Below, piece after piece: positions 40,263 through 53,950 of a DNA stretch of 56,804 nt. A model generated the notes under the pieces. That model saw only the letters and a list, made by a program, of their open reading frames with translations, was not told the origin of the DNA and made no database searches. Within the stretch, counting starts at the first letter, position 1. Each line of letters begins with the position of its first letter. Both the position numbers and the translations under genes were made by a program. Source of the DNA: a virus (lineage: Duplodnaviria; Caudoviricetes); the IMG/VR virus record IMGVR_UViG_3300032318_001198, positions 1 through 56,804 of that record; one strand, 5' to 3'.

Positions 40263-40796
40263 TTAGATAACACCGATTCCGCCAGCATTAAGTTCTTTAA
40301 TGTACTGGTCGTTATATTTACCAACACAAAGACGAAGTGATTCGCCCTTGGAGATGTTGTTTTGTTTCATCTCGAAATTTACTAACTCGGCAAAAGTTGT
40401 GGGAGCTTTAACTTCCAACTCACTTCCGCTCGCAATAGGAGCAGAAGCGATCTTGCCAAGTTCACGCTTGATCTCACCAAGAACGGCAGAGAGTTCAGTT
40501 GTAGCCGTGCTCTTAGCAGACATTTCAGCTTGAGAAGGATTCTCCTTATCTTTCTTGATTGTGGTCGTTGGCTGAGTTTCTTTCGTGTAAGGGAATGCAC
40601 CCATCTCTTCCTTATCGGTTCCTTCGCCCTTCATAGTTCCCTCCATCTTGGCAATACGATCTTCAATCGCACCTAGGCGTACATTGAGGGCTTCAAAATC
40701 AAAGGTTTCAAAGGTAGTTGTGGGCTTAAGAGCGTCTTGTGCACGGCTCTTAGCGTCAGTACCCTCGGTAATGTCGATATCGGGCTTTGTTTGCAT
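40263..40796 (-). CDS. Nested scaffold protein from internal start (Nu3-like)
   Basis: In-frame ATG (MQTKPD) preceded by TTGACA-14 motif. Confidence 0.55.
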   Translation of the reverse strand: MQTKPDIDITEGTDAKSRAQDALKPTTTFETFDFEALNVRLGAIEDRIAKMEGTMKGEGTDKEEMGAFPYTKETQPTTTIKKDKENPSQAEMSAKSTATTELSAVLGEIKRELGKIASAPIASGSELEVKAPTTFAELVNFEMKQNNISKGESLRLCVGKYNDQYIKELNAGGIGVI

Positions 40797-41759
40797 ATCG
40801 TTAATGTTGCTGTCAACCGCTATACAACTATTTTTAGCAGAAAAAAGTCCTGTGGGGTTCGAAGCTGGATTCTGAACTAGGTCAGCAGAATACAATTCTG
40901 AGCATCGTGCCAAGTCTAATCCATCTAAGTTTTTCTCTGATTCACCCGAGAAGCTGATTGAGATTCCAAAACTTTCTGGAATAGATTTAGCTAAGTCCAT
41001 ATAATACTTAGCCCTCTCTGCTCTGCTATCTAAGAATGTTAAATCTGCCAATAGCTTAGTCCCGCTATCGTCGATTCTGAAATTGTTTAGCTTACCAATG
41101 ATGTCGCCAATCCCTGCTCCGTGATTTTCGTTTACCTTAACTCCGTTAGCATAGGACTCGGCACATTGTTTTACTTGTTCTAGCGTTACAGAATCGATCT
41201 CTAAGTTATGACCCTTTGCAGTTCCCGATGTTAGTACTGACACAGCGGGAATGGTGAATGAGGCAACTTGCGTTTCCTCTCCCTTCCTAACTGGTCGACG
41301 TTTAAGAATTGGAGTTCCGCCCCCTTCTTTTGTTCCAAGCTCTCCGTCATCGATCATCTCTGGTTCCTCTGGAGCGGTTTCCAAGGCAGGAGCGATAGGC
41401 TCGCTGTCTGTGCCAGCTTGATCATCTGAATTGTATTCTGCGTCCGCCTCTGACTCATAGATATCATTGCAAGCATCGATACGATCTTGCATATCGGGAT
41501 AGGCTTTAGCCATTGAAGCGTCCGCAATGAACCTCTTTATAAACTCGCTATAGGTTTCACCCGCCATAGGGGATAGGTCTGAGCCGTCATCCATATCACA
41601 GCAGGAACCAAAGTCTTTTGCGTGGTTCTTTAGGATGCTTTTCCCAACCGCATATCTCTGTTTCTTATCGGGATACTCCTTGATAAAAGAGGCATTGCCC
41701 ATAATTTTATTCATATAGTCTTCGCTAGTTTGTTTAGGTTTGGGTTTTAAGAGGGGCAT
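40263..41759 (-). CDS. Prohead protease/scaffold fusion
   Basis: G.AKGH, ENH, FGISISF, SADLV.NPASNP.GLFS; acidic helical C-terminus. Confidence 0.75.
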   Translation of the reverse strand: MPLLKPKPKQTSEDYMNKIMGNASFIKEYPDKKQRYAVGKSILKNHAKDFGSCCDMDDGSDLSPMAGETYSEFIKRFIADASMAKAYPDMQDRIDACNDIYESEADAEYNSDDQAGTDSEPIAPALETAPEEPEMIDDGELGTKEGGGTPILKRRPVRKGEETQVASFTIPAVSVLTSGTAKGHNLEIDSVTLEQVKQCAESYANGVKVNENHGAGIGDIIGKLNNFRIDDSGTKLLADLTFLDSRAERAKYYMDLAKSIPESFGISISFSGESEKNLDGLDLARCSELYSADLVQNPASNPTGLFSAKNSCIAVDSNINDMQTKPDIDITEGTDAKSRAQDALKPTTTFETFDFEALNVRLGAIEDRIAKMEGTMKGEGTDKEEMGAFPYTKETQPTTTIKKDKENPSQAEMSAKSTATTELSAVLGEIKRELGKIASAPIASGSELEVKAPTTFAELVNFEMKQNNISKGESLRLCVGKYNDQYIKELNAGGIGVI

Positions 41760-42275: not shown

Positions 42276-43133
42276 TTAGAATCCTCCAATCGTCTCAGCG
42301 GTAGTTTTAAGCCCTCCACGTCCCGCTGACTTTGAACGTAGGCTGGCTTGGTACTGTGCTTCAAAGCGATCATCGTCGGACTTGAACCCGATCTTCTTTT
42401 CAACATCGTCCGTACGCTTGAGGAGTGAACAAGCTTGATCGAATAGGCTTGGTTGCTTTTTGTATTCGTAAGACTTCGGCTTGTAGCAAGTTGGGAGAAC
42501 TCCATCGTCCCAAGGGATTTCGTCGTGATACCCCGAGTACCAACTCTTCCGAGAGAGTGGGGTGTACTTCTTTGTTCGGTAGTTCCAATGAAGGTTCGAG
42601 TACCACACACCATCCGTGTGCTTAACCCAACCTTCGTTGTACATAAAAGCTCCTTTTTTCGATAGGACGCAGAACTTGCCACCGAACGTGTGGATTGCTT
42701 TTAGTCCCTTGATGGAAGCAACAACCGCACCCGCCCGAGAGTCAGAGAACAGACCCGCTGGACGAGCGATATTTGCACTCTTGATTGCCTTATCGAGATT
42801 CTTCTCCCAATCTCCCCAAGTGCCGTTATGGAACAGGACTCGCTTTGCTGAACCGCTTAGTCCCTCAGAGGGATTGCGAGAGATGGGGAATGGATGGCAT
42901 AGGACTGGCTGAACCCCGCCAACCGTTGCAATACGGAAGTGAGCCACAATTTGCCCCTTCTTGGTTTGAAGGATATTGTGGATAAATTTAGCGTCAACGT
43001 TCTTGACGTACTGAGGTCGTCCATTCTCAAGCCAAGCAACGCCACCACCGTCACGATTTGAGGCTTGGCAAGCGAGAAGAGTTTCCAAGCTTGGCCGAGT
43101 CTTTTTATCTACCGATATTAGAATTACACACAT
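42276..43133 (-). CDS. Class II (Ntn) glutamine amidotransferase
   Basis: N-terminal MC, N.DG.G, HFRIATVG, HPF, FHNG, SDS. Confidence 0.88.
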   Translation of the reverse strand: MCVILISVDKKTRPSLETLLACQASNRDGGGVAWLENGRPQYVKNVDAKFIHNILQTKKGQIVAHFRIATVGGVQPVLCHPFPISRNPSEGLSGSAKRVLFHNGTWGDWEKNLDKAIKSANIARPAGLFSDSRAGAVVASIKGLKAIHTFGGKFCVLSKKGAFMYNEGWVKHTDGVWYSNLHWNYRTKKYTPLSRKSWYSGYHDEIPWDDGVLPTCYKPKSYEYKKQPSLFDQACSLLKRTDDVEKKIGFKSDDDRFEAQYQASLRSKSAGRGGLKTTAETIGGF

Positions 43134-43160
43134 TGTTTTTTTTCTCCTTTTTCTATTTAC

Positions 43161-43189
43161 ATACTACACTATGGGAAGCTGGTTGGCAA
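43161..43189 (-). promoter_or_regulatory. Early promoter with operator
   Basis: TTGCCA-17-TAGTAT. Confidence 0.75.
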
Positions 43190-43192
43190 GCA

Positions 43193-44242
43193 TTAATTTG
43201 ACCGAGTTGCTCCTGCAATGTGAGTCCGAAAGGATGGGGAGTTGAATAGGGCAACCGCACTATCGGTATTCCGTCCTTCGGTTGGGATTGCTGGAACCTC
43301 GTAATTTTGCGAGCGGAGTCGGTCAAAGTGAAGGCAAGAGGCAAACCCCCAATCGAATTGAACCTTTGCCCGAGCTTTGAGGGTGGGATAGGCATTCGTT
43401 ACATCCCGCCGAGCCGAGCGACTCCAGAAGAATCGGAAAAGCTCAGAGGAGTTGATCTGCTCCTCGCTCCACCCCGAGGTCTTCCGCTTGCTGGCTTGTT
43501 GGGCAATCGCCAAACAAGTTGTGAGAATGACGAGAACTTTTGTAGGATTCAAGGTGGTCGAGAAACTCCGAAACTCGAACGTGCCGTTCGTCTTGATCTT
43601 GGTGAAGTTGATGAGGGCGTATTTCCCGATGTCGATGAAAGGGACTCGGAGTGCCCCCGACGAGGTGTGGGACGGAGACTGGCGAAGATCAGCTTTGCTA
43701 TTCCGAATCGCCCGATCTTGTTCCCGAGAGGAAAGAACCCTGCACCAACCGCTCAAGTCCCTCCGTTCTGCATTCTGGCCGAACAGAACTGGTGAGAGAC
43801 GATAGCCAAGCTTTGCAACGGATTCACAAAAGTCGACGATCTTGGCTGGCGAGTTGGAGTCGATGAAGTTTCCAGCGTGCAGAGTGACGTGGATTCCGCC
43901 TTGAGTCTGACCCGCTTGACGAATCGGACGCTTGCCCCCGATGGCTTTTATGAAAGCTAGGAAAGCAAGGATATTCTGGATTCCAGCGTCACCCTTGAGG
44001 ATGGGCGAAACAAACTCGCACTTTTTGTAGCCATTCTGAGTACGGATTGAGGGGTCTTCGTCGGCTTTCCAACACTCACCGTTGAATGTCGGTGCAACGT
44101 GAACAACCCCATCAGAGGTTGTTACCGATCTGATAGGAAGTCCTCGTCCGTGGGAGCCAATAGAGATTTGCAAGCTCTGAGGAATTGAGGTTTCGATTTC
44201 TATTCCGAACGTCTTTTCTTGGGCGTTTTCTTGATTGATCAT
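43193..44242 (-). CDS. Amidoligase (COOH-NH2 ligase, GS-like)
   Basis: FGIEIE, D.S, EFVSPIL, G.HV, KY..IN, T.EFR. Confidence 0.85.
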   Translation of the reverse strand: MINQENAQEKTFGIEIETSIPQSLQISIGSHGRGLPIRSVTTSDGVVHVAPTFNGECWKADEDPSIRTQNGYKKCEFVSPILKGDAGIQNILAFLAFIKAIGGKRPIRQAGQTQGGIHVTLHAGNFIDSNSPAKIVDFCESVAKLGYRLSPVLFGQNAERRDLSGWCRVLSSREQDRAIRNSKADLRQSPSHTSSGALRVPFIDIGKYALINFTKIKTNGTFEFRSFSTTLNPTKVLVILTTCLAIAQQASKRKTSGWSEEQINSSELFRFFWSRSARRDVTNAYPTLKARAKVQFDWGFASCLHFDRLRSQNYEVPAIPTEGRNTDSAVALFNSPSFRTHIAGATRSN

Positions 44243-44248
44243 ACGAAG

Positions 44249-44277
44249 AGATTACCATATGCCAACCCGCTTTGCAA
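44249..44277 (-). promoter_or_regulatory. Early leaderless promoter with operator
   Basis: TTGCAA-17-TAATCT-6-ATG. Confidence 0.75.
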
Positions 44278-44324
44278 GAAGTATTTTAAGATAATTGTAA
44301 ATAGTTGTAAGTCGTTGATTCTCC

Positions 44325-44855
44325 CTAGGAGACTATCCAGCGGAGATTCTTGTCCGCATCTGATCTACTCTCATTTTTGGCGAGTCTTACGCAATCAGAT
44401 AAGGTTTTATTGCTTTTTATGTTCTCGATTTTTGTCTTCCGCCCTAGGAGAAATGTTGGTGACTGGTCACTCCCTCTCGTAGTTGCCCTATGCCGTAAGG
44501 TCTCCTCGTCCGCTGATAGTATTAAGATGCGTAGGATTGTGTTTGGGAGCGATTGTAGGGCTTCTAGGAATGAAGAATTAAAAAGCCTATCTCCCTCGAA
44601 TATCAAATTCCCCTTGGTGCGTTTAATAAACTCAAGTGCGTATGGGGCGATTGAGAATGAAAACTTATCAGTTCCAGAAAAGAGTTCCTTTTTGTCGTAT
44701 ATTCCAAGGACATAGGAACCAAGAAAAGGATTGTAAAGATGGGGTACGCTGTGATGTATGTAGGGTTTCCAGCCATCAGTCATAGCTAGGTATTGGCGAA
44801 CCAAAGAAGTTTTGCCCGAGCTAGGCACTCCACCGATGGCAGTTATCACTCTCAT
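44325..44855 (-). CDS. P-loop nucleotide kinase of the type linked to phage base-modification systems
   Basis: GGVPSSGKT, F.GTD..S, FEGDRL, RGS.Q...F..GR.TK. Confidence 0.7.
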   Translation of the reverse strand: MRVITAIGGVPSSGKTSLVRQYLAMTDGWKPYIHHSVPHLYNPFLGSYVLGIYDKKELFSGTDKFSFSIAPYALEFIKRTKGNLIFEGDRLFNSSFLEALQSLPNTILRILILSADEETLRHRATTRGSDQSPTFLLGRKTKIENIKSNKTLSDCVRLAKNESRSDADKNLRWIVS

Positions 44856-45107: not shown

Positions 45108-45287
45108 TTACTCAAGAGATTTAATTTTAGGCTTATCTTTTTCTCCGCCTTGAATGACTGCGGTGGGGATGGTCGACGGAGGAGTTACTCCAGTCATAAG
45201 GTCTTCCTTTTTGGGGTGGAAAATTTCAATATCATTGTCCCAATTCATACGATTTTCGAACGTATTTTCATCCCATTTGTTCTTCAT
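45108..45287 (-). CDS. Small protein downstream of ART, candidate immunity (59 aa, not in ORF track)
   Basis: ATGA overlap with ART gene stop; MKNKWDENTFENRMNWDNDIEIF. Confidence 0.5.
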   Translation of the reverse strand: MKNKWDENTFENRMNWDNDIEIFHPKKEDLMTGVTPPSTIPTAVIQGGEKDKPKIKSLE

Positions 45288-47539
45288 AGTAATTCTACCT
45301 TAGCAGAAACTAGATTTCCTACAACCTCTGGTTCCTTGGTTCCAGTTAAATTACTTTGATAAAGCGGTACTCTTGTGATTTCAGTAACTCGAAAACGTGA
45401 TTTCCTTGGAAGAATAACCTCTTGCTCTTTGGACATACTCCCAGCATTCATAAACCTTGGTACTGCCATTCCCCTGCCTTTTGCTTTGTTTATGGTTAGG
45501 TAGAGTCTCGATTTCGTGTCTCCTACTAATGGATTAACCAAAAACCCATTTCCGTTCTTTGCCATATCTTTGAAAAGGTCACTCTCGAAGAATGATGTAT
45601 CCTTATAAACATTTGATTTACCGAAAGCAGACTTTACCGCTTTTGCATCCATTTTTCCAAATTGCCCATTTTTATTATACGTACTTATCTCTTTAAGGGG
45701 GTTGCCGTCTCCGTATTCATCTATTCCTATTAGATTTGTATACAACTGACTAAGACTGGCGAACTTTGCACCGACATATGCATCCCGAGATGTCGAAACA
45801 AATCCTTTGTCTACAAACTCGGAACCAACTTGGAGCGTTGAAGCAAGCTCTCTTGTTTGTGATTGAGTTTTATTTTTTGCGTGTTTTGCTTGGTCTTCGG
45901 TCATCCCACGATAAATAGTGGATTGTTCATTATTTGGGAAAATCTTTATGGCTTTATCAAGTAGTTCTTTTTTGTCGCCGATGGTAAAGTCTGGAGAGTT
46001 CGGGTCTTTTTCTGGCTCAGAACGACTTTCACTATTCATAAGTATTGAGCCACTACCAGTATAATCAGCTACGGCATTTATCATTTCGTCTGACTTATTT
46101 TGAAGTTCAACCGATGTGTCTGCTCCGAGTCCGTCTTTCGCTACTGCCTCACTCCATTGCTTTGCTTCTCTTTGGTTTTCTGGTCTATCCATTTCTAGGT
46201 TGGGATTATCTAAAATCTTGGAGTACACCCATTCTGCTTCCTGCTTGATAGATGTATACCCCTCTCCTACTCCGCTCTTGCCCTCTCCCCTGCCTCTTCC
46301 CGAGTCGCCACCTCCAGTCCACTTACCACTTTCATCCCGATTTTGTAGCGGGTCGTATTCAAAGCTAGTCGTTATGCAGAAGTCCTTCTGATTTGTAACT
46401 TCTTCTTTGATTGCAACCAATATCTCGTCGGTAATATAATCTGCGATCTCCGAGTCGGAGGGAGTTCTGGCTAAAGTAACTACTGAACCCATAGCCTGAA
46501 AACGAGCAATACCCTTACTGGAACTTCGCCCTTGCTGTGAATTATACTCCTTTACCGCTCCCTTAATAAAACCCGCAATCCCAGCACCCGCAATTAACTC
46601 CCCCCCGAGGGCTGGATTTATTAACGCACCAATCAATATCTTATAACGATGGCTTTGTACGCTAGCGACTGATTCAATCCCTCCCTTGTAGGCGATCTTT
46701 AATGCCTTCGATATGTTGTCTCTAAGATCACGTCCTGCTGGTGATTGAAGATAGTCTCTAATCTCTCCAGCCTTACTCGCTCCGTATTGTGCCTTAATCT
46801 TCGCACCTTCTGCAATCCGCCTCAATGCCCCTTTCTTTTCCTCAACCCCCTTAGCAGGGGCATCCTTGGTCGTTTTTGAGCCATCCCCGCCCTTGGAGCA
46901 AGTGTTGCCCGCCTTGAATCCTCCGCTACCAGTACCACAGTCTAACTCAAGGAGGTCTCCGTCTCCAAAGATAGCCCCGAGAAGGTCTCCGTCTGCCTCT
47001 CTGTAAGACTTCTTAACCTCGCCTCCTCCAGCCATTTTTAGAAATTTATTAACCCGAGCGATAGCCCAAGCATTACGAGAATTAGGTGCACCTCCGCTTA
47101 TGGTCGGTCTGTAGCTAGTAGAAAAAGCTCCCGCACCCCTACGAAAGACTTTTTTCAAAGTTCCGAGAGAGGGAGCGTTGCGGTTGGGATGCCTTTTCTT
47201 GAAGTCGGCAATCTTGTTTCTAAGGGTTTCCTCTACTTGCTCCGATACTTCGATGCCTCCAGATTCGCTTCTTGTCGATGCCGTGCCCTGCGGGTTTTTT
47301 TCGGAACCTTTGATTCTGTCTTTTTTTGGTGCGGGTGTTTGAGAAATAGTTCGGGCAAGTTCTTCGATCTTATGAGGCAACTTAGCACCAGTCATCTTCT
47401 CGTATTCCTCCGCCCCGAACATCGCTATAGCGTCTTTAATCCGCTCCTCCTGCGTCTTGTTGAGTTGCTCAATAAGCCCATCAACGTAGTCGTCGTCCTG
47501 CTTCTTGTAAGCCTTATCGATTTCAGAAAGCTGTTGCAT
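45284..47539 (-). CDS. Multidomain virion effector with C-terminal R-S-E ADP-ribosyltransferase
   Basis: IYRG, FVSTS, EQEV; linkers DCGTGSGGFKAGNTC and YDPLQNRDESGKW. Confidence 0.8.
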   Translation of the reverse strand: MQQLSEIDKAYKKQDDDYVDGLIEQLNKTQEERIKDAIAMFGAEEYEKMTGAKLPHKIEELARTISQTPAPKKDRIKGSEKNPQGTASTRSESGGIEVSEQVEETLRNKIADFKKRHPNRNAPSLGTLKKVFRRGAGAFSTSYRPTISGGAPNSRNAWAIARVNKFLKMAGGGEVKKSYREADGDLLGAIFGDGDLLELDCGTGSGGFKAGNTCSKGGDGSKTTKDAPAKGVEEKKGALRRIAEGAKIKAQYGASKAGEIRDYLQSPAGRDLRDNISKALKIAYKGGIESVASVQSHRYKILIGALINPALGGELIAGAGIAGFIKGAVKEYNSQQGRSSSKGIARFQAMGSVVTLARTPSDSEIADYITDEILVAIKEEVTNQKDFCITTSFEYDPLQNRDESGKWTGGGDSGRGRGEGKSGVGEGYTSIKQEAEWVYSKILDNPNLEMDRPENQREAKQWSEAVAKDGLGADTSVELQNKSDEMINAVADYTGSGSILMNSESRSEPEKDPNSPDFTIGDKKELLDKAIKIFPNNEQSTIYRGMTEDQAKHAKNKTQSQTRELASTLQVGSEFVDKGFVSTSRDAYVGAKFASLSQLYTNLIGIDEYGDGNPLKEISTYNKNGQFGKMDAKAVKSAFGKSNVYKDTSFFESDLFKDMAKNGNGFLVNPLVGDTKSRLYLTINKAKGRGMAVPRFMNAGSMSKEQEVILPRKSRFRVTEITRVPLYQSNLTGTKEPEVVGNLVSAKVELL

Positions 47540-49817
47540 AAGTCTCCTTCACTCTTGGTGTTTGGCCTTTGCTCTTGTCTGCGTTGCCGTCTATTTGATA
47601 GCCAATATCTGCAATCCCACCATCCGTTAGCCTTCTCCAAGTGCCCAAGGCTTGTACTGCTGAACCCTTGATATAGCCATAAGGAACGTAGCGTCCGTTC
47701 GGTTTTGCAAATCTTTTACCCGCCCGAGTAAGTGCGTTCTTATCATTTACGTCAACGTGCACAATTCCAATTTTATAGCCCCACGACTTAAGAAGGTTAG
47801 CCATCCCTTCAACCTTACCAGTATTTTTACCAGTAATATCGATAATCATATTGTGACGAGCACCCATAGCCATAGGAAAGATTTGCTTCTCTGAGATGAA
47901 TGAACTCTCTTCGTGAAAAGCTCCAGCGTTCCATCCTTCATATCCCTTAAGCTGTGCCTTGACTGCGTCGGGGTCAATGATTGTTACTTGCTTGCCTCCT
48001 AGAATCTTGTCTGCATAGGGTCTGCCCACGGTTGTTTTGCCCGAGGCTGGAGAACCCATAAGAATAACCGCAATAGGATTTTCGGATACCGCTTTTGGGT
48101 TTAGCTGAGATTCAATAATCTTCTTATTGTATTCTTTTGTTTCTTTCGTTGGATTTTGAAAGGTCTGCACGATGTCTGCTGATTGTTTGTACTTGCTTGG
48201 GTCTCTTAGACTCCAATGCGTTACTGAGGCTAATTTATTATTTTCATCCTTAGCAACCTTCGCCTGCAATACTGCCATCTTCTTTAGGGTTTCAACTACT
48301 TTTGGGTCTCGATTTAATTTGTCTATAAGTCTTTGGGCTTGTCTTTCGTTTCTGGCTTCTTGTGCTTTTGTAGCCCTTCCTCCCCCTCCGCCACCCGAAC
48401 CGCTCCATCTGCCCCTCTCGTCCCTCTGCTGAGAGGGGTCGTAAAACTCTATCGGAGTGTAGCCCCTGTAATAATGTAGCCTGCCCCTTTGGAGGGAGTG
48501 GTGAATACGAGTCGGGAATTTTGTTTCGTAGCTTCGGATATTTTCTTGGTAAGCTCGTTCTCCGTCTTCTCTGGTATCTCCACCGATAAACTCGCCAACA
48601 CCTCTGACTGAAATTGCTGTTGCATTTAATGCTCCTAGTATATTGGAAACTTTAGTCAACAAGGACGCTCCTTGGTCAAGGATAGTTACGTTTGTCTTCT
48701 TTTCGTTTCCCACCAAAGTTCTAAATTTGATTCCATTTTCTGTCAATACCTTTCTAACTTCTCCCATTCCAAGCTGAGATGTAATTTTATGAAGAATGTC
48801 GTTTCCATTTTCTTTTTCTTCAAACGCTATGACTGCTTTTTGTTGTAGCTTTGAGCCTAGCTTAGATGCTGTATATTTAATCTGGTCAAAGTCCTCTCCC
48901 TTAACCTTCATAATAATGGAGTCTTCCGCACCATCTTCCCAATCTCCAACTCCACTCTCCATCTCTGCCGTCATCTTCTGCTTTTCGATTATGCTCTTAG
49001 CCATCTTCACAGCCTCAGCGTGTTTTGGGCTATCCTTTTCCGCAACTGCCTGCGGAAAGGTCATATCTTCCCTAGTATTTGGAGATACCATAATCTCACC
49101 GCTTCCAGTCCATCTACCGCTCGAATCCCTATCCTGCGATGGGTCGTAGAATGCAATCCTACTTTTTATAGGCTCCTGAATTAGAATAGGCACATAGATT
49201 AATCCCTCTTCACTTGCTAGGTTTTTTACTGCAAGAGGCTTTGGTTTGCTTCCGTTCTCGTAGATATATTTTCTAACACTATCAATATCAAATATCGACA
49301 TAGTCTTTATGTTCCGAGGATGTACCGAGCCGTCTTTTACAAATATCTTAGAAACTGCGGCCATACCAGTCTTGCCCATCATTTGTGATTTCTTGCTTGG
49401 GATATTATCTGCCACGCTTTTGAACCCTTCGGCCAATATGCCGATGATTCCTATAAGTTGTTTGCCACCGATTTTGCTAGTTTTTCCACCACGCAACGCT
49501 CCGTATTCCATCGCCAAGTCCATTGAGTCCGTAGAATATACTTTTCCTCCACCCCATACGCCTTCCTTGCTTGGTTTAATTCCCTGCTCTCGAATCGACT
49601 TTAATGCCTGAGCAGAAGTTCCGTGATAAAGCATCGTTGTCTTCTCACCAGTTTCCTTGCTAGCCCTCTCTGGATTATCTTGTGCCCACTTGGGAGTAGT
49701 AGTCTGAGCATTCGAACCCGAACCTCCACCCGAACCAGTCCACCTCCCACTAGAGTCACGATCTTGCGATGGGTCGTAGAAATTGATCTGCCTTGAATTA
49801 TAGCAAAGCGAGATCAT
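47523..49817 (-). CDS. Multidomain virion effector: H-Y ART-like, unknown domain, zeta-toxin-like kinase
   Basis: LYHGTS..VY; GSPASGKT, IDPD, HEESS; three FYDPSQ.RD..GRW repeats. Confidence 0.8.
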   Translation of the reverse strand: MISLCYNSRQINFYDPSQDRDSSGRWTGSGGGSGSNAQTTTPKWAQDNPERASKETGEKTTMLYHGTSAQALKSIREQGIKPSKEGVWGGGKVYSTDSMDLAMEYGALRGGKTSKIGGKQLIGIIGILAEGFKSVADNIPSKKSQMMGKTGMAAVSKIFVKDGSVHPRNIKTMSIFDIDSVRKYIYENGSKPKPLAVKNLASEEGLIYVPILIQEPIKSRIAFYDPSQDRDSSGRWTGSGEIMVSPNTREDMTFPQAVAEKDSPKHAEAVKMAKSIIEKQKMTAEMESGVGDWEDGAEDSIIMKVKGEDFDQIKYTASKLGSKLQQKAVIAFEEKENGNDILHKITSQLGMGEVRKVLTENGIKFRTLVGNEKKTNVTILDQGASLLTKVSNILGALNATAISVRGVGEFIGGDTREDGERAYQENIRSYETKFPTRIHHSLQRGRLHYYRGYTPIEFYDPSQQRDERGRWSGSGGGGGGRATKAQEARNERQAQRLIDKLNRDPKVVETLKKMAVLQAKVAKDENNKLASVTHWSLRDPSKYKQSADIVQTFQNPTKETKEYNKKIIESQLNPKAVSENPIAVILMGSPASGKTTVGRPYADKILGGKQVTIIDPDAVKAQLKGYEGWNAGAFHEESSFISEKQIFPMAMGARHNMIIDITGKNTGKVEGMANLLKSWGYKIGIVHVDVNDKNALTRAGKRFAKPNGRYVPYGYIKGSAVQALGTWRRLTDGGIADIGYQIDGNADKSKGQTPRVKETYATAF

Positions 49818-49822
49818 CTAAG

Positions 49823-51832
49823 TTATTTTCCTTCTCTGGCTTTGTTTAGTTGGTCTACGACAACCTTTGATCTGGCGAACCCTGCGTCTCCACCCCATCC
49901 GTTCCAAGCTTGCCACCCCTTACCCTTCTCATCCCAACTGCTTCCCTGCTTATCGACTTCGTGACGAGTAAAGAAATTCTTCATACGCCTCCAGCTTCTA
50001 GGGGATAATCTCTTGGCATTGATTATGTCTCTTGCCCTAGCAACGCCAACTTGTGTCATTCCCCGCTGGCTAGCTGGTTTCGTCGCACGCACTCGTAGTG
50101 CTGACTTTGCGGACTCAATCATTCCAGCGTTGGGAGATAAATCTATATCACCAACTGCCTGCATCTCGATAGCGTCCAAGATCATCTCAGCTTCTCTAGT
50201 CGTGATAGCCTTCGGTGTTCGCCTTGCTCTGGTTGGAACTTCCTCTTCGGTGTCTTCTTCTTTGTCGTCTACTTCCGATTCATCATTTGTGTTAGGCACG
50301 TCTGGCAATTTGGCCTCCGCCACGGAGGGCAATGGGGCTTGGGGCGGAGCAGTCGGCTCAGAGGGCTTAAAAGAGTCTGAAATACTTTCGATAGGTATTT
50401 CCATTTCTTGAGCAAGGTCGGTTGCAATACGGACTTCCTTTGCTCTTTGTCTGATAGATTCCTCATAGTCTTCTCCTTTGCTTCCGTAAATTTCAGTCAT
50501 TGTTCGGAGTCCAGCTTTGAACTCAGCGATGGCACTCTGTGAGTCACGCCCTACGTCTATGGTTGGGTCGGCGGGATATATCCATTTGCCATTTCTATAG
50601 TTAGCACTTGGAGGGATTTCCCCTTTGCTCATTCCGTCTGCGAGCACCAAGTTCTTAACCCTGTCAAAAAATCTATCTTCCATAATTGACTGCCAACGTT
50701 TGAAGGTTCTGGAAGCGAGGGACATTTCCAGCCTCACGGTTGGGCCGCCGAGCTTAGAAAGGTCGTAGCAAAAACCGAATGGGAGGTTGAATGCTAAGGC
50801 AATCAAATGAACCATTAAGTCCACATACCCTTGGAAAGCCGAGGAGGGACGATTACTTTCGAACATTTTCATTTCGCTACCCGAGGGCAAGTAGTTGATC
50901 TGCGACTTCTGCATCGTCTCGAGATTCGTTAGGTTGCCGTATGCGTCTGTGTTGGCTTGGTTAAAATATGAGGATGGGTCGTCTGCTTGTCCGCTGGTGT
51001 TGGCGATGGTCATAATCCGCATCGCCGCGTTCTTGACTGCCATTTGCTCTGCGTCGAGCGTCTCCTGCAAGTCCTTACATTGATTAATGATTGATGCTAG
51101 ATGGCTACGTCCACGCACTTCGTCGAGCCTTAAGGGGTCATAGATTAGGAGGAAAGACTGAGCGGGAACTATCTGCGGGTCGGTATAAGAGTTACCTTGT
51201 GTTCGACGATAAACTTTGTATCCAGTTGTCTTTCCGTTTGGGTCAAAGCAAACTCCCCCGATATATTCTTGGTTAGCTGTCGGCACATCTATGTTTCCAC
51301 CAATACGATCTGCCTCTACGCTTTGTAGTGCTAAAGGGCTATTTGGGTCTGCGATTCCATTCGAGGTCTCTTGTCTGGTAATTACGAACCCAACGTCTCC
51401 ATCTCTAAGCACAGAGCGGAGGGCGAGGTGGGATAAGGAATGGAAGTTGTGTCGCCCTAAGTAATCGGCTTTCTTGCACCAGTTCTCCCAATACTTTTCG
51501 TAAGCGTCATCTATCTGGTTATCTCCAGTCCTACTAGAGTAGCGAAACTGCCCGAGGGCATACTGACTGAACTTCAAAAGGATGCTACGAATGATTGAGT
51601 TGTTGTCCTCTAGGTCACGTGCCGCACGTATCAACTGAATGCGTTCGAACGTTGAAGAGAATCCCTCTCCGCCACTTAGTATTCTGGATGGTGCACGATC
51701 TGTAAGGGTATACGCACCAGCAAATCTGTTGAACTCCACTAACTTACATTTGTCTGCTAAACGTTTGATTCCAAAGGCGGGATTTACCGAGGATACAATT
51801 TTCTCTATGAAGTTCAGGTTGGGCATATGCAA
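49823..51832 (-). CDS. Portal protein (lambda family) with C-terminal extra domain
   Basis: ARDL..NN, DGDV, EADRI, RG.S.L, IDVGRD; start probably 51826. Confidence 0.9.
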   Translation of the reverse strand: MHMPNLNFIEKIVSSVNPAFGIKRLADKCKLVEFNRFAGAYTLTDRAPSRILSGGEGFSSTFERIQLIRAARDLEDNNSIIRSILLKFSQYALGQFRYSSRTGDNQIDDAYEKYWENWCKKADYLGRHNFHSLSHLALRSVLRDGDVGFVITRQETSNGIADPNSPLALQSVEADRIGGNIDVPTANQEYIGGVCFDPNGKTTGYKVYRRTQGNSYTDPQIVPAQSFLLIYDPLRLDEVRGRSHLASIINQCKDLQETLDAEQMAVKNAAMRIMTIANTSGQADDPSSYFNQANTDAYGNLTNLETMQKSQINYLPSGSEMKMFESNRPSSAFQGYVDLMVHLIALAFNLPFGFCYDLSKLGGPTVRLEMSLASRTFKRWQSIMEDRFFDRVKNLVLADGMSKGEIPPSANYRNGKWIYPADPTIDVGRDSQSAIAEFKAGLRTMTEIYGSKGEDYEESIRQRAKEVRIATDLAQEMEIPIESISDSFKPSEPTAPPQAPLPSVAEAKLPDVPNTNDESEVDDKEEDTEEEVPTRARRTPKAITTREAEMILDAIEMQAVGDIDLSPNAGMIESAKSALRVRATKPASQRGMTQVGVARARDIINAKRLSPRSWRRMKNFFTRHEVDKQGSSWDEKGKGWQAWNGWGGDAGFARSKVVVDQLNKAREGK

Positions 51833-52126: not shown

Positions 52127-53950
52127 TTACGCTTCTGTCAACTCTTGCGATTTATATTCATCGCCAACTTGTTTCATTTCGGAAGAATCTTCATTTGGTA
52201 CTGGCATACAACCAAGTAGCATAGCCCCTACTAGATTCATACACTCACAGTCTCTTAAGTGATTGTCCTTGTGTATTCTATGCCAAACTAGTTTAGTACG
52301 CCCCGAGATGGGGTTGTACTTAGGCTTCTTGATTTCGCTATTGATATGTTTGTGCCATTCTTCGGGAGTGTCTAAAGGGATAAGCCAAGAACCCATCCTC
52401 TTGTTCTTTAACGCTGTAAGGATGTCTTTGATGGTCGGGTTTGACCAACGAATAACTGGACATCTCTTTTTGGATAGCCCTTCGGCTTGAGCCACCCTAC
52501 CAGTTCCGCTTAAGGGGTCGCCCCATTGAAGGGCGGAATAGGGGCGATTGATGCGGGAGGTCGGAGTTACGTGTGCGAAAAGGTGAGAGTCGGAGCCGAG
52601 CAAGCAAGTCCACCCAAACTTACAAGCTTGATAGTAAACGTCTCTGGTCTGATCTCCGCTGTCCACAAAAACCATTTTATCATCCACTTTCCAATCCAAC
52701 TGCATAACCCTTAGTGCGTCCCACGTCTCCAGCCTTCCACACCACTCCAGCCTAGAGGTTCCGTCCAACTTCCAAGCCCGCACCACCACCCACATATGAA
52801 AGCCCTTGGCTTCTTGGATGTCCGCCGAGATTATTCGCCTGTCGGCTTCTGCCCATACCTCACCCATCCTGTACCCGCTACCCTCAACTTTGTCTGTGCT
52901 TTCTTCGGGATTCTCTACCCAAGGTTGGGCGAGTACTGAATTGACGAAGTCCTGCAAGCCAACCAAGGATTTCTTGTCGTTCACAAACTTCACAGCCAGT
53001 TTCCCGAAAGTCTCCCAAGGGGAATATATTCCTGATAGGGAGTAGGATTTTACATTTGGCTCAGGGTTTGGGTTTGCTGGTTTCCATTTGCCCAACCTAA
53101 GCATCTTTGTCTTCTGACCATCAGTTATCCTTCCCTTGCACTTGGGGCACTCGTAGTAAGCCGTAGCTCGCACTCTCTCGTTATCCCACGTTCCATCCTC
53201 CCCTTTAGCCTCTTTGTCCCATTTCACGTTCGGCCAAGTCAGAACTTGGAACTCGTTGCAATGAGGGCAAGGAACGTGATAGTACCTCTGGTCGCCTCTA
53301 AGGAATGCCTGCCATATGTACCCAAACTCTGTCGTTGGCGTGGAGGTTTGAATAGTTAGACTTAGGGGATACGTCCTTGTTCTGGCTTCGGCTAGCTGAA
53401 TCGCCCCAGCTTCTCTAGATGATGCTTCGGCAAACTTATCAGTTTCATCACAAATCAAAAGTCCTACGCTACGTGATGCAAGATTTGCTGGTGAGTTACT
53501 GCCAAAAAACCAAAGTGACATACGATCAAAATGTTGTTCCATTATCTTGAACTTGTCTGCGTTAGCTGGCTTGTGTTTTGCTAGAGCAGGGCAATCGCTT
53601 ACCATAGGTTGCCAACGATATTCAGAAAAGCTTCTGGCGAGATTCTCGTTCGGCATAACCCACATTGCGGGAACTGGATTAACGTCGAGCCTATAGGCTA
53701 GTCCAGCTAGAATGGTTGTCGTCTTTGCGGTCTGTGCTCCCCAGCAAAGAACCATCGTGCGTGTATGGTCATCCTTGAAGTTTTCGAGAGGCTCCCGAAC
53801 ATATGGTGTAAGAAGAGTTGAGTACGCACCAGCAGAAGAAGATACCCTTTCCGAAAGATATAGATTAGCCTCTGCCCATTGCTGAACTGATAGTGCTTGG
53901 CGTGGACTCCAGATATTATCCACAAACTGCTCTAGGTCTAATTCATTCAA
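52127..53950 (-). CDS. terL: Terminase large subunit (GpA family)
   Basis: TPY.REP, AQTAKT, DETD, STPT, GDQRYYHVPCPHC, VDSG, NH.RDCE. Confidence 0.95.
   Translation of the reverse strand: MNELDLEQFVDNIWSPRQALSVQQWAEANLYLSERVSSSAGAYSTLLTPYVREPLENFKDDHTRTMVLCWGAQTAKTTTILAGLAYRLDVNPVPAMWVMPNENLARSFSEYRWQPMVSDCPALAKHKPANADKFKIMEQHFDRMSLWFFGSNSPANLASRSVGLLICDETDKFAEASSREAGAIQLAEARTRTYPLSLTIQTSTPTTEFGYIWQAFLRGDQRYYHVPCPHCNEFQVLTWPNVKWDKEAKGEDGTWDNERVRATAYYECPKCKGRITDGQKTKMLRLGKWKPANPNPEPNVKSYSLSGIYSPWETFGKLAVKFVNDKKSLVGLQDFVNSVLAQPWVENPEESTDKVEGSGYRMGEVWAEADRRIISADIQEAKGFHMWVVVRAWKLDGTSRLEWCGRLETWDALRVMQLDWKVDDKMVFVDSGDQTRDVYYQACKFGWTCLLGSDSHLFAHVTPTSRINRPYSALQWGDPLSGTGRVAQAEGLSKKRCPVIRWSNPTIKDILTALKNKRMGSWLIPLDTPEEWHKHINSEIKKPKYNPISGRTKLVWHRIHKDNHLRDCECMNLVGAMLLGCMPVPNEDSSEMKQVGDEYKSQELTEA

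Follow-up and report, generated by a model that had tools for sequence, protein, structure and literature searches.

A Short Conserved Peptide Precedes the Modules of Phage Polyvalent Proteins and Is a Candidate Leader for Head-Internal Cargo

In phage T4, the internal proteins and Alt are injected head proteins that carry a short leader, the capsid-targeting sequence, which serves targeting and is removed by the head protease. This sequence is N-terminal only, is limited to T4-like phages, and is cut at a defined protease site. Herein, we describe a short peptide, referred to as the tag, in two adjacent open reading frames (ORF1 and ORF2) of the virus record IMGVR_UViG_3300032318_001198 (Caudoviricetes), a linear record of 56.8 kb whose whole length is called the window. 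The tag, YDPxQxRDxxG(R/K)W followed by a Gly-rich linker, occurs in four copies in the window, each ahead of a module, and only in ORF1 and ORF2. Unlike the T4 sequence, it is internal as well as N-terminal, repeated, and conserved across phages with unrelated proteases; the likeness is positional only.

Polyvalent proteins of phages and conjugative elements carry several effector domains per chain and are predicted to be packaged and injected (Iyer et al. 2017, PMC5512222). ORF1 and ORF2 resemble them in joining unrelated effectors, such as an ADP-ribosyltransferase (ART) and a Zeta-type kinase, in one chain and in the location of their genes beside those for portal and terminase. Pfam families that originated from that study (ART-PolyVal, PBECR, LPD) are present in tag-bearing relatives. 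ORF1 and ORF2 are new members of this class, and the proposal of the initial annotation, a cocktail of enzymes delivered at injection, fits it. Compared with the polyvalent proteins as a whole, plasmid-borne ones included, the tag was found in the phage branch only, with 0 matches in plasmids by one tblastn search. The available text of Iyer et al. (PMC5512222) mentions no linker, spacer, boundary or tryptophan motif; its supplementary domain alignments might include the motif at domain edges.

MuF polymorphic toxins also occupy a packaging-module locus beside the portal and place a variable C-terminal toxin after a head-associated anchor (Jamet et al. 2017, PMC5576092). In relatives, the tag stands exactly between MuF and toxin. 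ORF1 and ORF2 differ from the MuF toxins in carrying several modules instead of one and in lacking the MuF domain (PF04233), which, in agreement with the initial annotation, gave no match in a Pfam scan at E ≤ 0.01. Without this domain, they fall outside the MuF toxins as Jamet et al. define them. A further difference is that no immunity gene is evident beside ORF1 and ORF2, for which no dedicated test was made. The available text of Jamet et al. (PMC5576092) mentions no junction motif, linker or cleavage. A 2024 paper on Bxa and Apk2 (PMC11699363) presents MuF as a hypothesized capsid-targeting domain, calls the biological role of MuF toxins unknown, and mentions no junction motif. The tag gives a concrete handle on the ways in which MuF-fused, portal-fused, and polyvalent effectors enter and leave the head.

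Pre-toxin motifs such as PT-VENN are conserved elements before a variable toxin that mark a cassette boundary and are a proposed processing site (Zhang et al. 2012, PMC3482391). Like them, the tag is short, conserved, and directly N-terminal of variable modules at cassette boundaries, which is a functional analogy and no homology. It differs in its sequence, in belonging to a phage-head route rather than a secretion system, and in standing before every module and also at N-termini. A full-text literature search for the motif strings returned no relevant paper carrying the tag, and the tag appears to be undescribed.

Tags and modules of ORF1 and ORF2

The window was searched in all six frames with the regular expression [YFNH][DN]P.Q.[RH]D..G[RK][WF]. 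Four copies were found, at the places given in the initial annotation, and a control with the reversed degenerate DNA pattern gave 0 matches on both strands of the record. A hidden Markov model (HMM) of the tag from other phages scored all four copies (domain E 1e-13 to 1e-9). No further degenerate tag was present in the window, the best other six-frame HMM match having an E of 0.55. A repeat search independently recovered the same four sites as a 47-nt family with 66–83% identity. Tags 1 and 2 encode the same 13 residues, yet 8 of their 39 bases differ, in 7 synonymous codons. This difference at an identical peptide means that selection is on the peptide and not on the DNA. The features of the two proteins, listed in the order of translation, are as follows.

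47523-49817, minus strand: ORF1, a polyvalent protein of 764 aa (tag, ART-like module, tag, unknown module, tag, Zeta-toxin kinase)
49740-49778, minus strand: tag 1, ORF1 aa 14-26, YDPSQDRDSSGRW, at the ORF1 N-terminus; found by regular expression and HMM
49173-49640, minus strand: module M2, ORF1 aa ~60-215, ART-superfamily-like, with conserved YHGT, VYSTD, and EYG
49110-49148, minus strand: tag 2, ORF1 aa 224-236, between the ART-like and the unknown module; found by regular expression
48513-49106, minus strand: module M1, ORF1 aa ~238-435, an alpha/beta domain without a family, with invariant G-W-DGAE-S; recurs in many polyvalent proteins
48405-48443, minus strand: tag 3, ORF1 aa 459-471, leading into a G run and, behind it, the Zeta-kinase module; found by regular expression and HMM
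47637-48086, minus strand: Zeta-toxin-like P-loop kinase, ORF1 aa 578-727; Pfam PF06414, E 4.1e-17, 62.7 bits against a cut-off of 22.3
45284-47539, minus strand: ORF2, a polyvalent protein of 751 aa (N-terminal region, Cys tag, hydrophobic M0-like module, tag, R-S-E ART)
46898-46942, minus strand: second tag type, ORF2 aa 200-214, DCGTGSGGFKAGNTC
46358-46834, minus strand: M0-like module, ORF2 aa 236-394, hydrophobic and Gly-rich, 43–47% identical to M0 of three related loci (L012, L009, L052)
46319-46357, minus strand: tag 4, ORF2 aa 395-407, YDPLQNRDESGKW, ahead of the R-S-E ART; found by regular expression and HMM
45368-46159, minus strand: R-S-E ADP-ribosyltransferase, ORF2 aa 461-724; Pfam PF03496 (ADPrib_exo_Tox), E 1e-11, 45 bits against a cut-off of 23.4

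The description of both ORFs as chains of unrelated domains was borne out at these coordinates. Each chain holds at least two distinct effector-type domains, namely Zeta_toxin, the ART-like module, and the folded M1 in ORF1, and ADPrib_exo_Tox and the M0-like module in ORF2. Two of the enzymes named in the initial annotation, the zeta-like kinase behind tag 3 and the R-S-E ART behind tag 4, score above the curated Pfam cut-offs. The P-loop GSPASGKT is readable in the kinase translation. In ORF2, YRG, STS, and EQE are likewise readable, which we take to be the catalytic R-S-E ART motifs. The N-terminal region of ORF2 has a weak match to DUF5824.

The H-Y ART-like domain, M2, has a Pfam PARP match at aa 53-115 (19.6 bits, under the cut-off of 26.7) and a weak NCBIfam Tpt1 match (E 9e-4). 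H, Y, and E are conserved in its alignment, and its best Foldseek matches are ART toxins (E 0.07–0.3, template modeling (TM) score at most 0.38). M1, the domain first noticed by its GDWEDGAEDS string, has relatives in at least 12 other polyvalent proteins and an invariant S-P-N near its start. It lies behind a tag and folds confidently in AlphaFold. Its fold weakly matches tandem ferredoxin/ACT-like folds, with an S-adenosylmethionine (SAM) hydrolase chain at rank 16 (TM 0.46 by target length), and its language-model neighbor is SAM lyase at 0.76, which is sub-threshold and a lead only. Two weak independent leads, the fold match and the language model, point to a phage SAM lyase or hydrolase. 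With 18 members, M0 is the commonest module among related phages, and hardly any architecture lacks it. This hydrophobic, Gly/Ala-rich module may be no enzyme but a membrane-active core component of the cargo.

The domain cores were well predicted by AlphaFold, with a predicted local distance difference test (pLDDT) of about 90 for M1 (fragment aa 33-230) and 70–87 for M2. In contrast to these cores, all four tags modeled, in two AlphaFold models, had a pLDDT of 30–54 and a single bridge between the invariant R and W, and none was packed against a domain. Tag 2 begins 10 residues past the last strand of M2 and ends 3–4 residues before the first strand of M1. The tag is thus predicted to lack structure except for a hairpin-like turn. 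No Pfam or NCBIfam model spans the tag in ORF1 or ORF2; phrog_38358, with no function assigned, weakly covers ORF1 aa 18-78. None of the PDB sequences matched the tag profile at E below 1.

The second, Cys-flanked tag follows the pattern C-x-T-G-x-G-G-F-K-x-G-N-T-C and precedes the hydrophobic segment, as initially noticed. It recurs in relatives (P0003, P0006, P0137/L037, L082). Its flanks are like those of the main tag, F.YN..I[DE]L, which looks like a hairpin, on the N-terminal side and a Gly run on the other. In ORF2, it stands 36 residues ahead of the M0-like module, and in L012, L009, and L052 a YDP tag stands 43 residues ahead of M0. Judged by this same place relative to M0, the two tags appear interchangeable. 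With its two Cys residues, the second tag may form a small closed loop or bind a metal.

Spread, consensus, and placement of the tag

To follow the tag beyond the window, a degenerate DNA pattern was run against IMG/VR and matched at least 119 viral loci. These held 172 in-frame copies in 130 open segments of 88–2811 aa, with 146 distinct 50-residue contexts. When split at each tag, these segments yielded 286 pieces that fell into 93 BLAST components, indicating that the flanks of the tag are very diverse. A 35-column profile of 125 tags was also compared with 1.84 billion representative proteins. It matched 1886 protein clusters at E ≤ 1e-3, of which 306 reached ≤ 1e-10 and 20 reached ≤ 1e-30; the proteins were up to 3849 aa long, with up to 9 matched stretches each. 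Nearly all protein matches were metagenomic, and three of 102 were of NCBI origin.

An unbiased logo was obtained from 782 tags by a re-scan of 229 proteins. Counting from 0, the positions are Y 58% or F 32% (0), D 58%, S 20%, or N 12% (1), P 78% (2), Q 89% (4), P 70% or A 12% (5), R 99% (6), D 95% (7), G 99% (10), R 62% or K 26% (11), W 92% (12), and T 64% or S 18% (13), after which the sequence is Gly-rich. The consensus is [YF][DSN]PxQ[PA]RDxxG[RK]W[TS], about 14 residues followed by a Gly-rich linker, and its core R-D-x-x-G-[RK]-W is 92–99% invariant. Ahead of the tag, conservation is lacking at −1 and −3, with K at 36%, A at 18%, and F at 14% in the former. The residues preceding the tags of ORF1 and ORF2 are INF, IAF, IEF, SFE, and LEL, as first read; INF, IAF, and IEF are confined to this phage group, with no general conservation. 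One variant (P0181) keeps Q..R and G-Q-W with a loop five residues longer, which would be consistent with a hairpin of variable turn length.

In bacterial genomes, a slightly stricter pattern matched at least 120 stretches from about ten phyla. The matches listed are mostly Alphaproteobacteria, with Actinomycetota, Bacillota, Planctomycetota, Cyanobacteria, Chloroflexota, Myxococcota, Verrucomicrobiota, and Nitrospinota also represented. No match was found in 72,556 plasmids by one tblastn search (single 40-aa query, E ≤ 10), and a conjugation-type Pfam domain was present in 0 of 102 tag-profile matches. By the searches run here, the tag appears confined to phage and prophage contexts and is very widespread in them. 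Cultured phages, searched by tblastn with two 40-aa tag segments, gave weak matches only (E 0.2–7), the informative ones being cluster-H-like actinophages. In two cultured actinophages, the tag lies at the start of head-module proteins, gp10 of Mycobacterium phage Damien (L124:3998-4771) and its counterpart in Nocardia phage P3.1 (L125:2995-3705). Both are annotated as capsid maturation protease; the remainder of each is very basic, of low complexity, and looks unlike a protease.

The proteins were then compared on the two sides of the tag. Among 68 non-redundant segments, each up to 350 aa long and taken from upstream of the first tag, 11 had portal and 6 had MuF domains in Pfam (Phage_Mu_F 6, Phage_portal_3 5, Phage_portal 3, Portal_Mu 2, Phage_portal_2 1, ART-PolyVal 3, Acb1 2, and others). 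Downstream of the tags, 103 segments contained ADPrib_exo_Tox (9), PARP (5), Zeta (4), DRAT (4), ART (3), and ART-PolyVal (2), together with GNATs, topoisomerase IB, PBECR1/3, Tox-REase-5, ParB_N, LPD3, and LPD39. No portal or MuF family was among the 25 listed of the 27 families matched downstream. Four examples illustrate this arrangement.

Portal_3 (273-485), tag at 751, ART-PolyVal (773-907)
Portal, MuF (911-1019), tag at 1033, PBECR3 (1075-1181)
MuF (58-188), tag at 388, module
Portal_3, Acb1, tag at 545, module

The anti-CBASS (cyclic oligonucleotide-based antiphage signaling system) phosphodiesterase Acb1 (PF23474) lies between portal domain and tag in L029:1019-3085, and Acb1 is also fused to portal or MuF proteins in P0062, P0095, P0102, and P0083. 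Among 126 tag-bearing segments from bacterial genomes, portal families were found in 20 and MuF in 5. Their toxin domains, which belong to the polymorphic-toxin repertoire, were RNAse_A_bac (6), Tox-REase-5 (4), PBECR2 (3), CDI EC869-like (2), CdiA_C, and EndoU. A prohead-protease domain shares the chain with the tag in P0047 and in some of the bacterial-genome segments.

The neighboring genes give a similar picture. Upstream of tag-bearing ORFs, 9 of 39 neighbors were portals, with large terminases also found there. The 148 downstream neighbors include MuF (6), DUF2213 (5), CLP_protease (2), S78 (2), S78_2 (2), SDH (2), Mu-like_Pro (1), and capsid proteins. The initial annotation had expected the tag to accompany domain boundaries and head genes across phage genomes. 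The profile searches found this association, since in the homologs the tag is modular, stands at domain boundaries, and is tied to head modules, with portal or MuF upstream and effectors, proteases, or capsid genes downstream. In one subgroup (L033, L066, L068, and L001), a tag-bearing ORF of ~312 aa (M12-T-M8, in the notation given below) also lies upstream of the portal, and tagged genes flank the portal on both sides. PI3/PI4-kinase-like domains (PF00454) were seen in P0048 (aa 1022-1093) and in one upstream neighbor of a tag-bearing ORF.

Within the proteins, the position of the tag is asymmetric. In 95 of the 229 proteins, at most 35 aa separate the first tag from the N-terminus, and in 5 of them the last tag lies less than 60 aa from the C-terminus. 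At the DNA level, which sets certain limits to the start, an in-frame stop precedes the first tag by at most 35 codons in 12 of 93 distinct ORFs, ORF1 being among these N-terminal cases, and a stop follows the last tag by less than 60 codons in 1 of 84. The spacing between tags has a median of 241 aa (5–95% range 139–554 aa). Judged by position, the tag is probably a leader and not a trailer.

Related architectures were compared after labeling modules by BLAST cluster, with T for the tag and u as the label for what precedes it in ORF2.

ORF1: T-M2-T-M1-T-M6
ORF2: u-T-M26
L012: M14-T-M0-T-M1-T-M2-T-M26
L017: M30-T-M0-T-M1-T-M2-T-M6
L035: that of L017 plus one inserted module
L009: M14-T-M0-T-M15
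Another subgroup: M3-T-M0-T-M4

In the window, M1 and M2 follow each other in the inverse order to that of L012 and L017. Identity to L012 is 59% for M1, 70% for M2, and 90% for M26, a mosaic pattern. Related phages have swapped, permuted, split, or fused modules exactly at the tags. To see with which flank the tag moves in this shuffling, tags were compared in pairs. Pairs sharing their downstream module had a tag identity of 0.59 and pairs sharing their upstream module one of 0.54; the pairs are not independent, and counter-examples were seen. The tag can be used in annotation to split giant phage proteins into modules, many of them without a family, and to flag probable injected cargo.

Proposed function and rival explanations

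We see an even chance that the tag is a dual portable leader for head-internal cargo, serving both loading and release. Most likely, it would be a recognition signal that retains the module behind it in the procapsid or draws it in. It would also mark the sites at which modules detach from the portal or MuF anchor and from one another, be it ahead of ejection or in its course, with the flexible Gly stretch as an accessible cutting or hinge region. The logic would be that of the T4 capsid-targeting sequence, but with a signal conserved across phages of many phyla. Portal-fused cargo would have to be cut off to leave the head and the tag is the only conserved element at the junction, which favors a role in release. 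A free, tag-first protein such as ORF1 needs a way into the procapsid, which favors a role in loading. The association with portals, MuF, proteases, and capsid genes, together with the lack of plasmid matches in one tblastn search and of conjugation domains in the 102 profile matches, points to a linear signal specific to the phage head. The prohead-protease domains in tag-bearing chains and the tagged starts of the Damien and P3.1 proteins fit a signal for going inside the head and prove nothing. It is possible, though doubtful, that a single tag peptide suffices for head loading and release as a near-universal portable cargo leader of tailed phages. If true, any cassette with a tag would be pluggable into any phage, and the tag could load foreign proteins into capsids. 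A peptide sufficient for packaging would be a general label for loading proteins into phage capsids.

Several points weigh against a dual leader. The proteases near tag-bearing genes belong to at least six Pfam families (DUF2213, S78, S78_2, CLP_protease, SDH, and Mu-like_Pro, among the 148 neighbors), which by name include both assemblin-like and ClpP-like families. Neither these proteases nor the portals, of five Pfam families, are uniform enough to recognize a near-invariant motif, whose reader may therefore lie elsewhere. Among the head proteins, none stands out as sufficiently conserved for this task; a conserved host factor, the tags themselves, or an unrecognized head component may be the reader. 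A loading signal should be superfluous in proteins joined to portal or MuF, and tag-first proteins have nothing to be released from. Some of the proteins could therefore do without the one half of the dual role, and some without the other. Asp-Pro self-cleavage was rejected as a general mechanism, with D at 58% and P at 78% only and YS[DEP]DQ variants common. In addition, the protein set behind the logo and the position counts is enriched for multi-copy proteins and may hold fragments, and the absence from plasmids rests on one tblastn search with a single 40-aa query.

An unlikely alternative gives the tag no part in loading and makes it a cleavage site of the prohead protease only, the polyprotein being cut at each tag into separate enzymes. 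Its place between anchor and cargo and between modules, the lack of structure in the models with a Gly-rich stretch behind it, and the prohead-protease domain within some tag-bearing chains are all expected of such a site, and portal-fused cargo would presumably have to be cut to leave the head. A site read by proteases of at least six families should not have a core that is 92–99% invariant, however, nor flanking positions −1 and −3 that are unconserved. In the many tag-first proteins, whether counted among proteins or at the DNA level, cleavage would remove only a few residues, and the supposed protease gene of the window has no family match. The initial annotation had combined a modular capsid-loading tag with processing by the prohead protease. 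The modularity, the domain boundaries, and the association with the head held up; the protease diversity, the unconserved flanks, and the tag-first proteins argue against the protease-site part.

Near-invariance in about ten phyla, with unrelated portals and proteases, would be best explained by a conserved host partner. We give a similarly small probability to a tag that acts after injection by binding a host factor conserved in all bacteria, such as a protease, a chaperone, or part of the entry route, which cuts, refolds, or positions the modules. The tag precedes enzymes with very different targets, as such a role would allow. Against it, the recipient cytoplasm is also the place of action of the polyvalent proteins of conjugative elements (Iyer et al. 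2017, PMC5512222), and one tblastn search found no plasmid match and none of the 102 profile matches carried a conjugation-type domain. The tag also leads head-internal proteins, for example chains with prohead-protease domains, which argues against a signal read in the host.

A neutral joint, kept as a short homology for cassette recombination and without a biochemical role, is quite improbable. Modules are permuted, inserted, and split exactly at tags, their identities range from 59 to 90% between the same two genomes, and conserved polymorphic-toxin junctions offer an analogy (Zhang et al. 2012, PMC3482391), all of which a recombination joint would produce. What is kept, however, is the peptide and not the DNA, given the 8 of 39 differing bases and the 66–83% identity of the four copies, and neither conservation across very different lineages nor the strong asymmetry between N- and C-termini suits a neutral element. 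Least probable is mutual binding of tags, or their binding to the small hairpin that often precedes them, with tagged cargo assembling as an internal body on tags displayed by portal or MuF fusions. This would explain conservation and portability without a conserved partner, would have portal fusions presumably show twelve tags together, and agrees with the hairpin-like turn of all four modeled tags and the varying loop length of one variant. Against it, no portal or other head protein of this window carries a tag, and AlphaFold2 left the two tags unpaired in both modeled fragments.

Gene order around ORF1 and ORF2

The genes examined near ORF1 and ORF2 are all on the minus strand, and the two genes sit in the head-morphogenesis module, right after the portal gene. 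The flanking head genes are as follows.

52127-53950, minus strand: terminase gpA, directly upstream of the portal gene
49823-51832, minus strand: portal protein, lambda family (Pfam PF05136, E 5e-49), immediately upstream of ORF1
40263-41759, minus strand: head-module protein of 498 aa, called protease/scaffold in the initial annotation, without a Pfam, PHROG, or NCBIfam match

The ATG of ORF1 lies 5 nt past the portal stop codon in a different frame, and an in-frame TAG stands directly before this ATG. ORF1 is therefore a separate protein with a fixed N-terminus, and a portal-ORF1 fusion through frameshift or readthrough was rejected for this window. The start of ORF2 overlaps the end of ORF1 by 17 nt, with a Shine-Dalgarno-like AAGGAGA ahead of its ATG. 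Past ORF2, the order is a P-loop kinase, an amidoligase, a GATase-like gene, the 498-aa protein, and then small and large capsid-region genes. The two ORFs had been placed between portal and protease; the portal side of this statement is correct, and three more genes separate ORF2 from the supposed protease gene. The name protease for that gene finds no support in Pfam, PHROG, or NCBIfam families. Its ESM language-model neighbors are DUF2213, Peptidase_S78, and Mu-like_Pro at 0.89–0.90 and ChaB at 0.91, a lead only. The N-terminus of the 498-aa protein holds a ~35-residue repeat in two copies, each ending in YPD..(Q/D)R. The three intervening genes (42276-44855) encode a P-loop nucleotide kinase, Ploopntkinase3 (PF18751), an amidoligase (PF12224), and a weak class-II glutamine amidotransferase-like protein, and this trio may be a small modification system inside the head module.

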